Below, one piece after another: positions 76-45,185 of a stretch of DNA of 45,185 bases. The translations under genes and the position numbers were made by a program. Below the pieces are notes generated by a model, which saw only the letters and a program-made list of their open reading frames with translations, was not told the origin of the DNA and ran no database searches. Source of the stretch: Escherichia phage LL11; sequence record NC_048064.1. One strand, 5' to 3'. Positions within the stretch are counted from its first letter, which is position 1; every line of letters starts with the position of its first letter.

Positions 76-104
76 TTGACACAGGCAATCAACAGGTATA
101 CATT
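76..104 (+). promoter_or_regulatory. putative host sigma70-type early promoter (TTGACA-N17-TACATT)
   Basis: Exact TTGACA at 76-81, 17-nt spacer, TACATT at 99-104, in the left non-coding region upstream of the early ORFs; same architecture repeated at 991-1019. Confidence 0.5.
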
Positions 105-256: not shown

Positions 257-272
257 GCTCTTTAACAATTTG
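257..272 (+). repeat. early-region conserved box GCTCTTTAACAATTTG (copy 1 of 3), possible RNA processing or leader element
   Basis: Near-identical 16-mer at 257-272, 1042-1057 and 1305-1320, each 50-110 nt upstream of an early ORF start and embedded in imperfect inverted repeats. Confidence 0.4.
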
Positions 273-1041: not shown

Positions 1042-1057
1042 GCTCTTTAACAATCTG
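1042..1057 (+). repeat. early-region conserved box (copy 2 of 3)
   Basis: GCTCTTTAACAATCTG; precedes ORF 1098-1262. Confidence 0.4.
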
Positions 1058-1097: not shown

Positions 1098-1262
1098 ATG
1101 ACTAACGCACAACGTAAACGCTATGCTGCATTACAAGAGAAACTTGCTGTTGCTTATGCCGCTTGGCAAGCTAACACAGACAAGAGCAAACACGATGAAC
1201 TTTATAGTAAAGTGGTTGCAATTAATGCTAAAATAGCTAAACTTGTGAATAGTATCTTATAA
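1098..1262 (+). CDS. hypothetical early protein (54 aa)
   Basis: ATG at 1098 preceded by AAAGGTG; translation MTNAQRKRYAALQEKLAVAYAAWQANTDKSKHDELYSKVVAINAKIAKLVNSIL. Confidence 0.4.
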   Translation: MTNAQRKRYAALQEKLAVAYAAWQANTDKSKHDELYSKVVAINAKIAKLVNSIL

Positions 1263-1304: not shown

Positions 1305-1320
1305 GTTCTTTAACAATTTG
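1305..1320 (+). repeat. early-region conserved box (copy 3 of 3)
   Basis: GTTCTTTAACAATTTG; precedes the Ocr-like gene at 1414. Confidence 0.4.
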
Positions 1321-1413
1321 GATGGTAGCTTCTTAGTCTGGATAGGTTAAACCTAGGAGATTCTCTTGAGTCTCCTATAATGTAACCTAACTAACTAAAT
1401 GAGGATTAATAAC

Positions 1414-1767
1414 ATGGCTATGTCTAATATGACTTACTCTCAGGTTTACAACACCGCTCATGCTGCATTAGTTGAACGTATCTGGAATGATGATATTGAT
1501 TGTATCGATAACGCACATGATGCAATCCATGAGGTAGCGGACAGTGCTGTACCAATCTATTATGCTGACATCTTCTCAGTGATGGCGAGTGAAGGCATCG
1601 ACCACTTCTTCGAGGATTCTGGCTTAATGCCAGACACTAAGGATGTGACGGTCGTACTACAAGCCCGTATTTATGAACAACTCACCATTGATTTATGGGA
1701 ACGTGTTCAATATATGATTATTGCGTACACCAATTACGCTGAGGATTCAGAAGAAGAGGCAGAATAA
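1414..1767 (+). CDS. ocr: Ocr-like DNA-mimic anti-restriction protein (T7 gp0.3 family)
   Basis: Translation from ATG 1414 (GAGGA 8 nt upstream): MAMSNMTY...[52 protein letters not shown]... with acidic tail; long blocks match T7 Ocr as I remember it; the track start at 1399 is probably too far upstream. Confidence 0.85.
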
Positions 1768-1769
1768 GG

Positions 1770-1883
1770 ATGGAAAAGCAATATAACTTTATCTTTTCAG
1801 ACGGTGTAACCCTGAAGTGTTCCCTACGATTCGCACAAATTCGTGAGGAAGTACTAGGCACTACATACAAACTATTTAGCTGA
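1770..1883 (+). CDS. hypothetical small protein (37 aa)
   Basis: ATG 1770 just after the Ocr stop with AAGGA upstream; MEKQYNFIFSDGVTLKCSLRFAQIREEVLGTTYKLFS. Confidence 0.25.
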   Translation: MEKQYNFIFSDGVTLKCSLRFAQIREEVLGTTYKLFS

Positions 1884-1896
1884 CACTATAAGAGAA
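1874..1896 (+). promoter_or_regulatory. degenerate phage-RNAP promoter-like sequence (ATTTAGCTGACACTATAAGAGAA)
   Basis: Matches the SP6-type core at -17 to -2 but has A instead of G at the expected +1. Confidence 0.25.
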
Positions 1897-1959: not shown

Positions 1960-2187
1960 ATGGATTTAGATAGCATCATTATGGCATTTGCTCTTATTGG
2001 CTTAAGCTGGTGCTCCTATCACCTTTACCGTGAGTTCTTATTTGATAAAGCTAAACGCAAACTAAGAAAGGAAGGCGGTAATTACCTTTGTGTAAGAGGT
2101 GGGCTTGTAGAATACATTGCACCTAACGGCACGGAATGCTCCATTAGCAAAGATGCATTTATAGAGACGTGGCATTACATCAAGTAA
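1960..2187 (+). CDS. hypothetical early protein with hydrophobic N-terminus (75 aa)
   Basis: ORF track; N-terminal segment IIMAFALIGLSWCSY looks membrane-spanning; RBS GGAG upstream. Confidence 0.45.
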   Translation: MDLDSIIMAFALIGLSWCSYHLYREFLFDKAKRKLRKEGGNYLCVRGGLVEYIAPNGTECSISKDAFIETWHYIK

Positions 2188-6192: not shown

Positions 6193-6321
6193 ATGCGTAA
6201 CTTTGAGAAGATGACCCGTAAAGCTAACCGTTTTGACATGGAAGAAGGGCAGACGAAAGGCAAGAAGCTGAATAAACCTGTCCGTGACCGTGCATCTAAA
6301 CGCGCAGCGTGGGAGTGCTAA
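6193..6321 (+). CDS. gp1.1-like small basic protein (42 aa)
   Basis: MRNFEKMTRKANRFDMEEGQTKGKKLNKPVRDRASKRAAWEC resembles T7 gp1.1 as I remember it; GGAGA RBS. Confidence 0.65.
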   Translation: MRNFEKMTRKANRFDMEEGQTKGKKLNKPVRDRASKRAAWEC

Positions 6322-18190: not shown

Positions 18191-18661
18191 ATGTCAAATA
18201 TTGATATTGGCGAATACGTCGTACGCCGTGCAGCTTACCGAGATGCCAACTGGAATAAACTGTGTGAAAGCTTAAACAAGAAACCAGATGAGGTATTCAA
18301 AGTATCCCGTGCAGAACCTAATTATAACTCTATCATGTTAGAAGGTGTGGAGAAGCGCGAATGGTATGCACCTTACTTCAAGGTTGTTGACTCATTGCAA
18401 GGTGAAGATCCTGACACGTTGGACAACAATATGGTTACTAAACCAAAACACTACGAGTTCTTTGATGGCGTAGAGGCAATCACTATCATTGCCCGCAGTA
18501 TGACTGAAAAGCAATTCGCTGGGTACTGCATGGGTAATGCCCTTAAGTATCGCCTGCGTGCGGGTAAGAAGTTCAATACTGAAGAAGACCTGAAGAAAGC
18601 AGATTACTACAAAGAGTTATTCCAGAAGCATCGTCACGAATGTATTGATGAGGATATTTGA
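18191..18661 (+). CDS. hypothetical protein with DUF3310-like C-terminal region
   Basis: ATG 18191 with GGAGGA RBS; C-terminal PKHYEFFDGVEAITIIARSMTEKQFAGYCMGNALKYRLRAGKK pattern recalls DUF3310 phage proteins (from memory). Confidence 0.5.
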   Translation: MSNIDIGEYVVRRAAYRDANWNKLCESLNKKPDEVFKVSRAEPNYNSIMLEGVEKREWYAPYFKVVDSLQGEDPDTLDNNMVTKPKHYEFFDGVEAITIIARSMTEKQFAGYCMGNALKYRLRAGKKFNTEEDLKKADYYKELFQKHRHECIDEDI

Positions 18662-40115: not shown

Positions 40116-40194
40116 GTAAGATAGCGCCGTTCTTTTGAGCGGCCTATTACTAGCCAATCTTCATAGGGAGGGTTGGAAAGTAATAGGAGATAGC

Positions 40195-42093
40195 ATGGCT
40201 AAATTAACCAAACCTAATACTGAAGGAATCTTGCATAAAGGACAATCTTTGTATGAGTACCTTGATGCGAGAGTTTTAACATCAAAGCCGTTTGGTGCTG
40301 TAGGTGACGCCACTACTGATGATACTGTGGTTATAGCTGATTCATTAAACTCTCAGAAAGCTGTCACAGTCTCAGACGGTGTATTCTCTAGCTCTGGTAT
40401 TAATAGTAATTACTGTAACTTAGACGGCAGGGGTAGTGGCGTGCTAAGTCACCGTTCAAGTACAGGTAACTACTTAGTATTTAACAATCTACGTGCAGGT
40501 CGCTTAAGTAATATTACGGTAGAAAGTAATAAGGCGACTGATACAACTCAGGGACAGCAGGTCTCCCTTGCTGGTGGAAGTGATGTTACTGTAAGTGACG
40601 TTAACTTCTCAAACGTTAAAGGTACTGGTTTCAGTTTAATCGCATACCCTAATGATGCGCCACCGGATGGACTTATGATTAAAGGCATTCGAGGTAGCTA
40701 TTCCGGCTATGCTACTAATAAGGCAGCCGGATGCGTACTTGCTGACTCCTCAGTTAACTCCCTCATAGATAACGTCATTGCTAAGAACTACCCTCAGTTC
40801 GGAGCAGTAGAGTTGAAAGGTACAGCCAGTTACAACATAGTCAGTAATGTTATAGGGGCAGATTGCCAGCATGTAACTTACAACGGCACTGTAGGGTCAA
40901 TAGCTCCCTCTAATAACCTTATCAATGGGGTAGTGGCTAATAATCCTAAGTATGCAGCGGTTGTTGCAGGCAAAGGTAGTACGAACTTAATCTCAGACGT
41001 GCTCGTAGATTACTCAACTTCTGATGCGAGGCAGGCTCATGGTGTTACCGTAGAAGGGTCTGATAACGTCATAAATAATGTGCTTATGTCAGGGTGTGAT
41101 GGTACTAACTCTTTAGGACAAGGGCAGACTGCTATAATTGCACGCTTTATAGGTACAGCTAATAACAACTATGCGTCTGTATTTCCTAGCTACAGTGCTA
41201 CAGGTGTTATTACTTTCGAATCCGGCTCTACCCGTAACTTCGTAGAGGTAAAGCACCCGGGCAGGAGAAACGACCTTCTCAGCTCTGCTAGTACTATTGA
41301 CGGTGCAGCTACTATTGACGGCACTAATAATAGTAACGTAGTGCACGCACCTGCATTAGGGCAGTACATAGGTAGTATGTCAGGTAGGTTCGAATGGCGG
41401 ATTAAGTCCATGTCACTGCCTTCAGGCGTTCTTACTTCTGCTGATAAGTACAGAATGCTTGGGGATGGTGCTGTGTCATTAGCTGTAGGTGGAGGCACTT
41501 CTTCTCAAGTTCGCCTATTTACTTCTGATGGTACTTCTCGGACAGTGTCCCTCACCAACGGTAACGTGCGTCTTTCTACCAGTAGCACAGGCTATTTGCA
41601 GTTAGGTGCTGATGCAATGACCCCAGATAGTACTGGTACATACGCCTTAGGTTCCGCCAGTCGAGCATGGTCTGGCGGTTTTACTCAAGCAGCATTCACT
41701 GTTACCTCAGATGCTCGGTGTAAAACAGAACCTCTTACTATCTCAGATGCCTTACTGGATGCTTGGTCTGAAGTTGACTTTGTGCAGTTTCAGTATTTGG
41801 ATCGTGTTGAGGAGAAGGGTGCAGACTCAGCTAGATGGCACTTCGGTATCATCGCCCAGCGAGCTAAGGAGGCCTTCGAACGTCACGGTATAGATGCACA
41901 TCGCTATGGCTTCTTGTGCTTCGACAGTTGGGATGATGTATACGAGGAAGATGCCAATGGCTCTCGTAAACTGATTACACCAGCAGGTTCCCGCTACGGT
42001 ATTCGTTACGAGGAAGCACTGATATTAGAGGCTGCGTTGATGCGGCGGACTGTTAAGCGTATGCAGGAAGCACTAGCTTCCATGCCTAAGTAA
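40195..42093 (+). CDS. tailspike 1: beta-helix depolymerase with C-terminal intramolecular chaperone (peptidase S74-type) domain
   Basis: 632 aa from ATG 40195 (AGGAGA RBS); Ser/Thr/Gly/Asn-rich repetitive beta-helix middle; C-terminus SDARCK ... ARWHFGIIAQRAKEAFERHGIDAHRYGFLCFDSWDD matches the autoproteolytic chaperone module of endosialidase/K5-lyase-type tailspikes. Confidence 0.85.
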   Translation: MAKLTKPNTEGILHKGQSLYEYLDARVLTSKPFGAVGDATTDDTVVIADSLNSQKAVTVSDGVFSSSGINSNYCNLDGRGSGVLSHRSSTGNYLVFNNLRAGRLSNITVESNKATDTTQGQQVSLAGGSDVTVSDVNFSNVKGTGFSLIAYPNDAPPDGLMIKGIRGSYSGYATNKAAGCVLADSSVNSLIDNVIAKNYPQFGAVELKGTASYNIVSNVIGADCQHVTYNGTVGSIAPSNNLINGVVANNPKYAAVVAGKGSTNLISDVLVDYSTSDARQAHGVTVEGSDNVINNVLMSGCDGTNSLGQGQTAIIARFIGTANNNYASVFPSYSATGVITFESGSTRNFVEVKHPGRRNDLLSSASTIDGAATIDGTNNSNVVHAPALGQYIGSMSGRFEWRIKSMSLPSGVLTSADKYRMLGDGAVSLAVGGGTSSQVRLFTSDGTSRTVSLTNGNVRLSTSSTGYLQLGADAMTPDSTGTYALGSASRAWSGGFTQAAFTVTSDARCKTEPLTISDALLDAWSEVDFVQFQYLDRVEEKGADSARWHFGIIAQRAKEAFERHGIDAHRYGFLCFDSWDDVYEEDANGSRKLITPAGSRYGIRYEEALILEAALMRRTVKRMQEALASMPK

Positions 42094-42178: not shown

Positions 42179-43891
42179 ATGCTTCAAAGATTAAGTGCTT
42201 ACTTGGTGAAGTACAAGAGTAAACTAACAGGTACTATTGAGCGCCTGCTATCTGATAAACTATCGGATACAATAGATGTTGCGGATTTTGGAGTTAATCC
42301 CTCTTCTAATGACAACAGGCGAGCCCTTCAAGCTGCATTCAATGCGGTCAGATTGCTAGGCGGTGGTACTGTATCAGTCACTAAAGCTGGCGAATATAAA
42401 CTCAGTGGCACTGTTGAGATATTTGCTAATACACACTTCAAGGTTGCTAAAGGTGTAACATTTGTACGTGACTACGAAACAGGAGATACGCTATTCAGAT
42501 TATCACAAGGGCAAGCTAGTAATGTAACAGTCAGTGGAGGTGTCTATGAAGGCAATGGTCACACTAAAGGGGATACACCTTTTGTAGTATTTGCATCTAC
42601 TAGTAATAATGATTTGAAGTTTGAAGGCATAACAGTTAACAATGTAGTGGACTACCACGCCATAGATTTAGCAGATTGGAACAACGTAGTTATTCGTGAT
42701 TGTAAATTCCTAGGGTTTAAGAATACAGGCAGTCGTAACTTCTCAGAGGCTATACAGTTAGACCCAGGTCTTATTACAGTTGGTCACTATGTACAGTCAA
42801 GCGGTATGCTGGTGGAGAATTGCTATGCTGGTCCAAACCCAGAATCCGGGTTTGGGGGTTATGGTGCACTAATCGGAAATCACGCCTCAGCTTATGGTGT
42901 ACAGGACAACAATATCCGTATCTTGAATTGCACTACAGATGGTGCTCTCTTTGCAGGTGTACGTGTATTTAACTGGAAAAACTGGACAGTACGTGGTTGC
43001 ACCTTTAGAAACTCTAATGCAAGGGGTGTTCATGTTACACCTGTCTCCTCTCAAACTAAACCGCAAGGGACTCGACAAGGTAGTGTTGTAGATTGTACTT
43101 TTGATGGCGTAAGAACACCAGTGCTAATTGCTGCACCATCTTGGCCTTTTACCGATATTAGTGACATTTGGCATGACCATATTGAAATTTCTAATAATAC
43201 TATGATCCTCACAGAGGATGTATCCTATGGTGTAGATGCAAGGTGGTGTAAGAATTTAATTGTAAAAGGTAATACAGGCTCTGGTGGCTTAGGGTTAATC
43301 GGTTTACGCTTTGGGACAAAATACCACATCGAAGGTAATACTTGGGAAAACGGAAGAGGTAGTGGGATTTGGTTAGGTGAGTCTGATGCTACTACATTCA
43401 TTGGTACTGGTTTATCAGGAGAAGGTATACTTAGTCGTAATATCTTCTCTAAATTAGGGCAATATGGTATTCATGTAAACTGCAAGGCTAGCGGTCTAGT
43501 GGTTAAAGCTAATAATATGAAGGAAGTATCTACCGCTGAAGCAGGTAGACACTTCATTAGTATAGACACAGGAGCTAACAACATCCTAGTAGAAGGTAAT
43601 ATTGGAGTAGATGGAGAGAGCCTTAACAAGCCAAGCCTTGGTATTCGTGTTACTTCTTCTTGCTCCAATATTAAACTAATTGGCAATGATTGCTATGGTA
43701 CGCAAGCACCTCAGAATAACCAAGGGGTCGGTTCTAGTACGGTGATTGTCTATGGACTAAATGGCAATCCTACAACTTTAGGTGTAGGTGCACCTGTCGG
43801 TTCTTTGGCAACGGATATTAATGGGTCTGGTGGTAGTACATTGTACATTAAAGAATCTGGTACATCTGCTCAAGGTTGGGTTGCAAAGTAG
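42179..43891 (+). CDS. tailspike 2: second beta-helix (pectate-lyase-fold-like) receptor-binding protein
   Basis: 570 aa; AAAAGGAGG RBS; repetitive Gly/Asn/Val/Thr-rich sequence with Asn ladders typical of right-handed beta-helix depolymerases; no C-terminal chaperone module. Confidence 0.8.
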   Translation: MLQRLSAYLVKYKSKLTGTIERLLSDKLSDTIDVADFGVNPSSNDNRRALQAAFNAVRLLGGGTVSVTKAGEYKLSGTVEIFANTHFKVAKGVTFVRDYETGDTLFRLSQGQASNVTVSGGVYEGNGHTKGDTPFVVFASTSNNDLKFEGITVNNVVDYHAIDLADWNNVVIRDCKFLGFKNTGSRNFSEAIQLDPGLITVGHYVQSSGMLVENCYAGPNPESGFGGYGALIGNHASAYGVQDNNIRILNCTTDGALFAGVRVFNWKNWTVRGCTFRNSNARGVHVTPVSSQTKPQGTRQGSVVDCTFDGVRTPVLIAAPSWPFTDISDIWHDHIEISNNTMILTEDVSYGVDARWCKNLIVKGNTGSGGLGLIGLRFGTKYHIEGNTWENGRGSGIWLGESDATTFIGTGLSGEGILSRNIFSKLGQYGIHVNCKASGLVVKANNMKEVSTAEAGRHFISIDTGANNILVEGNIGVDGESLNKPSLGIRVTSSCSNIKLIGNDCYGTQAPQNNQGVGSSTVIVYGLNGNPTTLGVGAPVGSLATDINGSGGSTLYIKESGTSAQGWVAK

Positions 43892-44078: not shown

Positions 44079-44540
44079 GTGGAAATTTGGAGGCCTATTG
44101 CTGGTATACCAGATTACATGGTTTCCTCCTTTGGTCGTGTTAGATCTCATAAAAGAGGTAAGGTTACTATACTAAACCCTCCGCACGACAAAGGAGGTTA
44201 TCGTAATGTTGTGCTACGTGCTAATGGTGAAAAGATAAATCGCAAGGTACATAGGCTTGTGGCAGAGGCTTTCTTACCTAATCCTCGCGGTCTACCTCAA
44301 GTAAATCACAAGGATGAAGTAAGAGACAATAATCATGTAAGTAATCTGGAGTGGTGTGATTGTGCATACAACGTAGATTACTCTCAAGCAGCTACTTATA
44401 TTGTGATGTGCCCTAAAGGTAATATATTAGTAGTAAGGAATGTGGCTAAGTTTTGTAGGGAAAACGGATTAAGCAGTGGTTCTTTTACAGATATGCTTAA
44501 GGGAAGACGTAAGCAACATAAGGGTTATCGCTTAGTGTAA
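44079..44540 (+). CDS. HNH homing endonuclease (paralog 3 of 3)
   Basis: GTG 44079 5 nt after AGGAGG; MEIWRPIAGIPDYMVSSFGRVRS, HRLVAEAF, NHKD...NNH..NLEW, C-terminal QHKGY; last gene before the terminal region. Confidence 0.8.
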   Translation: MEIWRPIAGIPDYMVSSFGRVRSHKRGKVTILNPPHDKGGYRNVVLRANGEKINRKVHRLVAEAFLPNPRGLPQVNHKDEVRDNNHVSNLEWCDCAYNVDYSQAATYIVMCPKGNILVVRNVAKFCRENGLSSGSFTDMLKGRRKQHKGYRLV

Positions 44541-44598: not shown

Positions 44599-44640
44599 TG
44601 TCTCGCCCTCGCCCTCGCCGGGTTGTCCCCATAGGGTGGC
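44599..44640 (+). other. candidate genome left terminus / start of terminal repeat (TCTCGCCCTCGCCCTCGCC...)
   Basis: T7-type genomes begin TCTC...; three tandem CCCTCG units followed by GTCCCCATAGGGTGG, reminiscent of the T7 left-end CCCCCATAGGGGG; the window appears to span the end-to-end junction. Confidence 0.35.
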
Positions 44641-44822
44641 CTGAGGGAATCCGTCTTCGACGGGCAGGGCTGATGTACTCCTTGGATAGTACAAGGGAGG
44701 CCGAGGGAGCGCCTAGGACGGCCTAGGGAATGGCTTAGTGGTGGACAAGGTGATTACCTTAGTGAAGCCTCTTAGTGCATTCCTGAGGCTATTCAGGGCC
44801 ATTCCTGAGTGTTTGACAGGGT

Positions 44823-44850
44823 GGGGGAGGGGGGGGGGGAGGGGCGTGGG
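44823..44850 (+). repeat. G-rich tract with an 11-nt poly-G run
   Basis: GGGGGAGGGGGGGGGGGAGGGGCGTGGG in the terminal non-coding region. Confidence 0.8.
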
Positions 44851-44904
44851 CTATCTGTTCGTTTCGTTCACTCCGCTTGCGCTCCGTTCACTCGCTCACG
44901 TGTA

Positions 44905-45031
44905 CCTTAGGTTATTCCTTGATGGATAGCTTAGGTTAGCCTTAGTGGACTACCTTAGTTAAAGCCTTAGTGCTTAGCTTAGTATCAGCTTAGTAGTGTA
45001 CCTTAGTCAGACTTAGTGTCTTCTCTTAGTG
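44905..45031 (+). repeat. array of about 11 CTTAGT-type heptamer repeats in the terminal non-coding region
   Basis: CCTTAGG, GCTTAGG, CCTTAGTG, CCTTAGTT, CCTTAGTG, GCTTAGC, TTAGTA, CTTAGTAG, CCTTAGTC, ACTTAGTG, TCTTAGTG at irregular 8-13 bp spacing; further copies at 44757, 44769, 45174 and at 21, 57, 68; analogous to the CCTAAAG repeats at the T7 left end. Confidence 0.7.
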
Positions 45032-45185
45032 ATTGCACATGCAAGCATGTAAGATGCCATTAGGTCGCGGTCGGTAGACCGCTAAGAAGAGGTAATAGTA
45101 ATAAGATGCAGTAGGAGGAACACCAGAAACCTAGCCAACCTAGCCTATCCTAGCTCTGTATCTATTACTTTTCCTTAGTCTCACA

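Follow-up and report, generated by a model that had tools for sequence, protein, structure and literature searches.

Does the short reading frame near the start of Escherichia phage LL11 (NC_048064.1) encode an Ocr-type DNA mimic, and, if it does, how did a counterpart of T7 gene 0.3 come to stand in a genome of the SP6 type? The stretch analysed here (45,185 nucleotides, hereafter the window) comprises the whole genome of a Vectrevirus (Molineuxvirinae, SP6/K1E group), in a record that is circularly permuted relative to K1E and SP6. Most of the SP6 proteins with assigned functions are ~70-94% identical to those of the window and colinear with them, and the first 6 kb share 92-96% DNA identity with many Vectrevirus records. 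As the last ~585 nt of the record match positions 1-639 of K1E, the true left end would lie near window position 44601, and the gene starts ~2.0 kb from this inferred end. The gene and its ribosome-binding site are as follows:

1414..1767, plus strand: ocr coding sequence, T7-like allele (referred to below as 'window-type'), 117 aa plus stop, taken from the open reading frame list and the sequence
1401..1405, plus strand: Shine-Dalgarno sequence GAGGA, visible in the letters themselves, 8 nt 5' of the start codon at 1414

The mechanical list of reading frames opens this frame slightly earlier, at an in-frame ATG at 1399. Since that codon overlaps the Shine-Dalgarno sequence, its K1E counterpart is out of frame, and the protein begins with MAMSNMTY in all relatives and in T7, we take 1414 to be the real start; the extent given by the initial annotation (1414-1767) is therefore exact. 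Two antisense reading frames overlapping the gene (1424..1555 and 1718..1870, minus strand) were dismissed as short mechanical ORFs, all identified genes of the window being on the plus strand.

The translation aligns with T7 gp0.3 along all 117 residues and free of gaps, 75 of them being identical (64%), and it shares with it the opening MAMSNMTY (8 residues) followed by identical blocks of 15, 13 and 15 residues. By phmmer, T7 gp0.3 (PDB 1S7Z) was matched over residues 1-116 at E=8.1e-40, together with nine other T7 Ocr entries, and the protein is a significant full-length match to the Pfam family PF08684 'DNA mimic ocr' (E=2e-42, 144.2 bits, the gathering cut-off being 25 bits) and matches PHROG 2568 'ocr-like anti-restriction' (E=1.9e-47). 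An AlphaFold2 model, calculated from an alignment of 26 homologues from which the K1E protein was left out, reached a mean pLDDT of 90.2 and places helices at residues 8-25, 35-45, 50-57 and 78-116, i.e. the predicted structure has the helices A, B and C, the long helix D and the long acidic C-D loop of the Ocr fold. When the model was compared with the PDB by Foldseek, all eight significant matches were T7 Ocr (TM 0.84-0.95, rmsd 0.8-2.2 Å), in chains that were either free or complexed with BrxX/PglX, AriA, a type I methyltransferase or RNA polymerase; nothing else in the PDB was significant, the next match having E >1.

The initial annotation had proposed that an SP6-type phage carries, in its early region, a DNA mimic of the Ocr type that resembles T7 gp0.3 over long blocks, and had named a database search as the check. 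The search found that resemblance far beyond chance, the four identical blocks of the gap-free alignment bear out the description, and this identification is fully supported (1S7Z, PF08684, PHROG 2568, the fold and the SP6-type promoters described below). We hold it to be very likely that the reading frame is the orthologue of T7 gene 0.3 in the SP6/K1E group and that it is functional, given its homology and predicted fold, the functional residues that it conserves, the purifying selection acting on it and where it lies relative to promoter-like signals.

A further claim, that the acidic surface-forming segments match those of T7 as well, stood only in part: 22 of the 34 acidic positions of T7 are kept, and a loss of acidity relative to T7 is plain in helix A and at the C-terminal end of helix D. 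With 12 positions lost and two gained, the window protein has 24 Asp/Glu residues (vs 34 in both T7 and SP6 Ocr) and a net charge of -20 (vs -28 in T7 Ocr). Half of the lost positions (6 of 12) fall in residues 99-116, and the end of helix D is a hydrophobic 13-residue segment where T7 has the acidic EDAEDLLNEYLEE. Measured against published benchmarks, the carboxylates (acidic loop 2 included) are still dense, though less so than in T7 or SP6: binding of T7 Ocr to M.EcoKI drops to the level of DNA only once ~16 of its 34 carboxylates per monomer are neutralised (PMC3439906), evolved T7 Ocr variants with only 14-17 acidic residues are active (PMC4872106), and single and double substitutions are generally silent (PMC3439906, PMC4872106). 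Loop 2 (E59, D62, E64, E66, D67, D73) is critical, in that mutating this segment cripples T7 Ocr (PMC3439906); five of its six carboxylates are kept in the window protein (E59, D62, E66, D67 and D73), E64 is replaced by F, and the loop also carries L63H. Among the residues forming salt bridges with PglX (PMC11341690), five of six are likewise kept (D35, D42, D62, D76 and E109) and R79 is replaced by V, and the residues of the predicted dimer/AriA interface (F54 and L82 in Met1 numbering, A57 in mature numbering; PMC10802264) are identical to those of T7, as is an 11-residue block. By homology, the protein would inhibit type I restriction-modification enzymes and the BREX protein BrxX/PglX by competing with DNA, and given ten fewer acidic residues than T7 or SP6 Ocr, E64F and R79V, its affinity or target range could differ quantitatively.

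The changes are unevenly spread along the protein. Among 14 window-type alleles pN/pS is 0.06 in codons 1-95 and 0.57 in codons 96-112, and nucleotide identity between alleles falls to 65-92% in 1682-1761, vs mostly 95-100% (82-100%) upstream. The core of Ocr is thus under strong purifying selection, and the tail is relaxed rather than demonstrably positively selected. Residues 1-95 are nearly invariant between the window and KMB14, R4596, VEc3, AAPEc6, ACG-C91, Sem1-4 and others, and the alleles differ mainly in residues 96-117, where the window has Y100, I103 and the ending EEEAE; in other window-type Vectrevirus phages the flanking leader and the downstream 37-aa reading frame are the same as in the window. 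Positive selection on the tail was considered and set aside, as a pN/pS of 0.57 is below 1.

One might read this tail as the mark of a specialised variant, in which diversifying selection has produced the reduced charge and the hydrophobic, hypervariable end of helix D, altering the target spectrum or evading PARIS-type sensing with restriction still blocked. The tail is indeed the most variable part of otherwise near-identical alleles (pN/pS being ~10-fold higher there), none of the 14 alleles has fewer acidic residues than the 24 found in the window, Sem3 and UKE2, and recognition of Ocr by PARIS is partly charge-dependent (PMC10802264). We nevertheless consider such specialisation unlikely: the ratio fits simple relaxation, the same segment is dispensable in T7, where Ocr99 (Ocr without residues 99-116) retains anti-restriction (PMC3439906), the residues F54 and L82 through whose mutation T7 escapes PARIS (PMC10802264) are unchanged, and the cited literature maps no AriA, PglX or M.EcoKI contact specifically to residues 96-108. 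Relaxed constraint on a segment that the protein can do without best accounts for the variability and the lower acidity of the C-terminal tail. The opposite extreme, a decaying or non-functional relic that the phage no longer needs, could point to the 12 of 34 T7 acidic positions that are lost, yet it is hardly credible for an intact reading frame with a good Shine-Dalgarno sequence, a confidently predicted fold, a strongly constrained core in 14 alleles from phages isolated in several countries, and a genome holding many type I and BREX targets.

Whether the gene is also placed and equipped as an early gene was judged from the signals around it:

76..104, plus strand: sigma-70-type promoter-like site TTGACA-17-TACATT (candidate), identical in its hexamers to the site at 991
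257..268, plus strand: first boxA-like motif, GCTCTTTAACAA
991..1019, plus strand: sigma-70-type promoter-like site TTGACA-17-TACATT, 10/12 consensus positions, the nearest candidate host promoter 5' of ocr
1042..1053, plus strand: second boxA-like motif, GCTCTTTAACAA, just 3' of the promoter-like site at 991-1019
1305..1316, plus strand: boxA-like motif nearest to ocr, GTTCTTTAACAA, a putative rrn/lambda-type antitermination box
1333..1398, plus strand: long interrupted hairpin of the leader 5' of ocr, where T7 has its R0.3 RNase III site, with a putative role in processing
1874..1894, plus strand: first SP6-type phage promoter (ATTTAGCTGACACTATAAGAG), 107 nt 3' of the ocr stop

The plus strand holds twelve promoters of the SP6 type (core GACACTATAGAAG, up to one mismatch allowed), all of them downstream of ocr, and because even the first lies beyond the gene, ocr belongs to the early segment that only the host RNA polymerase would transcribe. 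At the level of sequence it is therefore an early gene, near the leading end and served by the host polymerase. The scan for sigma-70 promoters gave no enrichment (6 found vs 6.7 expected from shuffles), and the two TTGACA-17-TACATT sites, proposed from their position, are accordingly no more than candidates.

The boxA-like motifs stand out more clearly. The sequence TCTTTAACAAT, which from the rrn boxA consensus we take to be the rrn/lambda boxA antitermination box, occurs in three exact copies (259, 1044 and 1307), all within the early region; with one mismatch allowed there are six matches in the window vs 1.2 expected, a number that none of 100 shuffles reached. One of the three longer copies (257-268, 1042-1053, 1305-1316) has a single mismatch to GCTCTTTAACAA, and two follow TTGACA-17-TACATT sites. 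T7 has a single boxA copy (815-825), 3' of promoter A3 and 5' of gene 0.3; the SP6-like relatives (SP6, K1E and others) all have 3-4.

The leader itself (1263-1413, 151 nt, comprising the hairpin and two smaller upstream stem-loops) has a folding energy of -52.5 kcal/mol (z = -6.0 vs shuffles). The counterpart of its hairpin in the colinear T7 leader, 826-924, likewise folds into a hairpin and presumably contains the R0.3 RNase III site. Three compensatory pairs among five sequences, including some between window-type and K1E-type leaders, are suggestive only of covariation and not decisive at this number of sequences, T7 and SP6 aligning poorly. The layout TAACTAACTAA...GAGG...ATGGCTATGTCT is found in T7 and SP6 as well; the expression unit consisting of boxA, hairpin, TAACTAACTAA, Shine-Dalgarno sequence and ATGGCTATGTCT is therefore common to T7, SP6, K1E and the window phage, in which, by analogy, boxA would act in antitermination and the hairpin in RNase III processing. 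No Rfam family matched anywhere in the window at gathering thresholds, which leaves the leader elements outside the curated RNA families.

How unusual is such a gene in this setting? Homologues of Ocr were recovered by tblastn from 570 phage records, and the window-type allele (89-97% identical) from 44 public records, all of them Vectrevirus genomes of 43.6-45.9 kb. The closest deposited alleles are those of KMB14 and R4596 (97.4%), no record in the phage collection being 100% identical; a collection of 5.8 billion proteins added more of the same and a few intermediates at 69-85%, and outside Vectrevirus no phage was found with an allele more than 73% identical to that of the window. Genes annotated as Ocr occupy the same slot in SP6 (gene 5) and K1E (gene 3), and VEc3 gp04 and others are also annotated as Ocr. 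The gene was thus already known, and SP6 Gp5 has been shown experimentally to abolish BREX defence in Salmonella (PMC11341690). The window ocr is an ordinary, already annotated, standard early gene of SP6/K1E-type phages with experimental support within the group, and its allele is new but unremarkable.

Ocr is mis-annotated as 'protein kinase' in several GenBank records (KMB14, OR424384 1389-1745; some T7 isolates; IME205), an error that propagates. Two records of phage K1E carry different ocr lineages, window-type in KY435490 and Kayfunavirus-like in the reference AM084415/NC_007637, and SHAK7163 is filed as Kayfunavirus with a Vectrevirus-like backbone.

Compared system by system, T7 gp0.3 has the same length as the window protein (117 aa), and the two agree residue for residue in helix C with the dimer interface, in most of loop 2 and in the core of helix D; the leader layout (boxA, hairpin, Shine-Dalgarno sequence) and the early, host-transcribed position are also the same. 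The surroundings differ, in that five small reading frames precede the window gene whereas 0.3 is the first gene of T7, and in that the backbone of the window is that of the Molineuxvirinae, its core proteins being only 25-36% identical to T7. SP6 Gp5 shares family, fold and slot (between the small early reading frames and the gp53/gp6/gp7/RNAP block); it is 60% identical to the window protein and 77% to T7 Ocr, and retains 34 acidic residues. K1E gp3 belongs to the same family and slot, and its leader is near-identical up to the Shine-Dalgarno sequence, but the protein has 108 aa, is 48% identical to the window Ocr, begins with MERNANAYY and has a shorter helix D; alleles of this K1E type are 77-84% identical to the Ocr of Kayfunavirus and Przondovirus. 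ArdA and the SAM hydrolase gp0.3 of T3 do the same job as Ocr, neutralising type I restriction early after DNA entry, the latter presumably from the same genomic slot. Both are absent from the significant Pfam, PHROG and PDB matches of the window protein, and they are analogues, not relatives; ArdA is a DNA mimic of plasmids and transposons (PMC2731889).

From the presence of Ocr beside an SP6-like RNA polymerase, promoters and right-end tailspikes the initial annotation had suggested that the early region is mosaic. The conclusion is right in outline and the reasoning behind it wrong: Ocr in this company is not in itself mosaicism, since it is a regular syntenic gene of the group (SP6 gene 5, K1E gene 3, VEc3 gp04, the 44 Vectrevirus records) with a leader colinear in T7, SP6 and K1E; what does reassort are cassettes. 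Identity of Ocr departs from that of the backbone in every comparison, namely with T7 (64%, core genes 25-36%), with SP6 (60%, core ~70-94%) and with K1E gp3 (48%, backbone ~92%). Sliding the early region of the window along six Vectrevirus genomes (K1E, SHAK7163, mutPK1A2, KMB14, VEc3 and Sem3) located the exchanges in ocr and in two neighbouring reading frames, which belong to PHROGs 16783 and 21597:

1098..1262: 54-aa reading frame, cassette
1960..2187: 75-aa reading frame, cassette

The segment 1082-1281, with the 54-aa frame, is ~99% identical to K1E, SHAK7163 and mutPK1A2 and unrelated in KMB14, VEc3 and Sem3, and 1402-1761, with ocr, has the opposite pattern among the same six genomes; 1962-2201, with the 75-aa frame, matches K1E, SHAK7163 and Sem3, but not mutPK1A2, KMB14 or VEc3. 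Depending on the Vectrevirus genome, each small frame is either ~99-100% identical or unrelated, its assortment being independent of the ocr allele; every one of the four pairings of ocr type with type of the 75-aa frame is present, and the linkers 1282-1401 and 1762-1961 are conserved in six of six genomes. The early region is therefore a patchwork that arose by recombination within conserved linkers among co-circulating Vectrevirus. In it, ocr and the two neighbouring frames are gene-sized cassettes swapped among near-identical Vectrevirus backbones, and at some past time other Autographiviridae also took part in recombination of the early region.

Another origin, the recent horizontal acquisition of ocr from a T7-like phage (Teseptimavirus) into an SP6-like backbone, would account for an Ocr that is 64-68% identical to T7 in a genome whose core proteins reach 25-36%, and that is nearer to T7 (64%) than to SP6 (60%) or K1E (48%); the likeness of the K1E-type allele to the Ocr of Kayfunavirus and Przondovirus (77-84%) implies, moreover, that exchange between subfamilies happens. 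At the nucleotide level, however, the T7 and window genes are only 64% identical, and 58% of the codons for identical residues differ, a divergence as saturated as that of RNA polymerase, terminase and portal genes, so that a recent pick-up is not indicated. Alleles more than 73% identical are confined to Vectrevirus, and the gene sits in the same slot behind a homologous leader in SP6, K1E and T7. If ocr was exchanged with the T7 lineage at all, it must on this evidence have been long ago; saturated divergence and the shared slot and leader refute a 'recent' date, and we rate acquisition of this kind as highly improbable. Dating a transfer by synonymous divergence proved uninformative, as four-fold sites are ~50-65% different in ocr, RNA polymerase, terminase and portal alike, even between the window and SP6; the sole slightly lower value is that between T7 and SP6 ocr (47% of 34 sites). 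The 37-aa reading frame 3' of ocr (1770..1883) has no similarity to T7 gp0.4, and the module conserved with T7 and SP6 thus stops at ocr.

A bolder version of the cassette reading can be framed, in which the Vectrevirus ocr slot is a recombination hot spot that swaps at least two deeply diverged lineages (T7/SP6-like and Kayfunavirus-like) as exact cassettes, the distal part of helix D diversifies under PARIS-type pressure, and the window allele, with its low acidity and hydrophobic tail, partly escapes such sensors and continues to block restriction and BREX. Taken as a whole we consider this unlikely.

The putative dimerisation and targets of the protein, the probable timing of its expression and the presumed roles of boxA and hairpin would combine as follows. 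Once the leading DNA end has entered the cell, host RNA polymerase would transcribe ocr from the sigma-70-type promoters, passing through boxA-type antitermination signals, and the mRNA would probably be trimmed at the hairpin just 5' of the gene. The small, acidic, four-helix protein would then dimerise via its conserved hydrophobic helix C/D interface, and the carboxylate rows of the dimer would mimic the phosphates of ~20-24 bp of bent B-DNA. In this form it could protect the later-entering 9 EcoKI, 5 EcoBI, 5 EcoAI, 5 EcoR124I and 45 GGTAAG sites.

Type I and E. coli BREX targets are not depleted across the genome (EcoKI sites 9 vs 4.5 expected; GGTAAG, the E. coli BREX target, 45 vs 22 expected), a picture consistent with dependence on an active inhibitor. 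Strong avoidance is seen for GATC (43 vs 169 expected), CCWGG (9 vs 61) and GAATTC (0 vs 13). Sites of type II and Dam/Dcm type thus appear to be escaped by avoidance, with type I and BREX left to Ocr.

For K1E-like phages, which are therapeutic candidates against K1 and other encapsulated E. coli, these results confirm the annotation as carriers of an Ocr-type inhibitor, and such carriage bears on predicting their host range and their sensitivity to PARIS-type systems. On Vectrevirus backbones that are nearly the same, one or the other of two Ocr lineages is found, which share only 48% identity, and the window-type lineage combines a conserved core with a free-running C-terminal tail; this offers a natural series of alleles for learning which parts of the DNA mimic matter for which defence system.

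Several other parts of the genome deserve mention. An early 64-aa reading frame (423-617) is without PHROG or Pfam match, and its DNA recurs in only two other phage records (NTNC80A, 90%; Raoultella phage P3a, 78%). Two further proteins are nearer to T7 than the core genes are (25-36%): gp1.1 (6193-6315) is 58% identical, and the C-terminal 73 aa of the gp1.7 nucleotide kinase (18434-18643) 66%. Two tailspike-type genes are found at 40135-42093 and 42179-43891, one encoding a protein of 652 aa whose C-terminal domain is an intramolecular chaperone (Peptidase_S74) and the other a 570-aa beta-helix protein; both have counterparts at 95-98% identity in G9, 6948, EEc4 and other Vectrevirus phages, and compared with SP6 gp49/gp50 they gave no match. 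Between the tailspike genes and the genome end (44079-44540) lies a NUMOD4/HNH homing-endonuclease gene (153 aa), carried by only some close relatives, e.g. G9 and Sem1-4. The terminal segment (44601-45185 joined to 1-120) holds a G-rich tract with a G11 run at 44829-44839, and a CTTAG repeat array at 44906-45025 that runs on into 1-70 and recalls the short repeat arrays adjoining the ends of the T7 genome.
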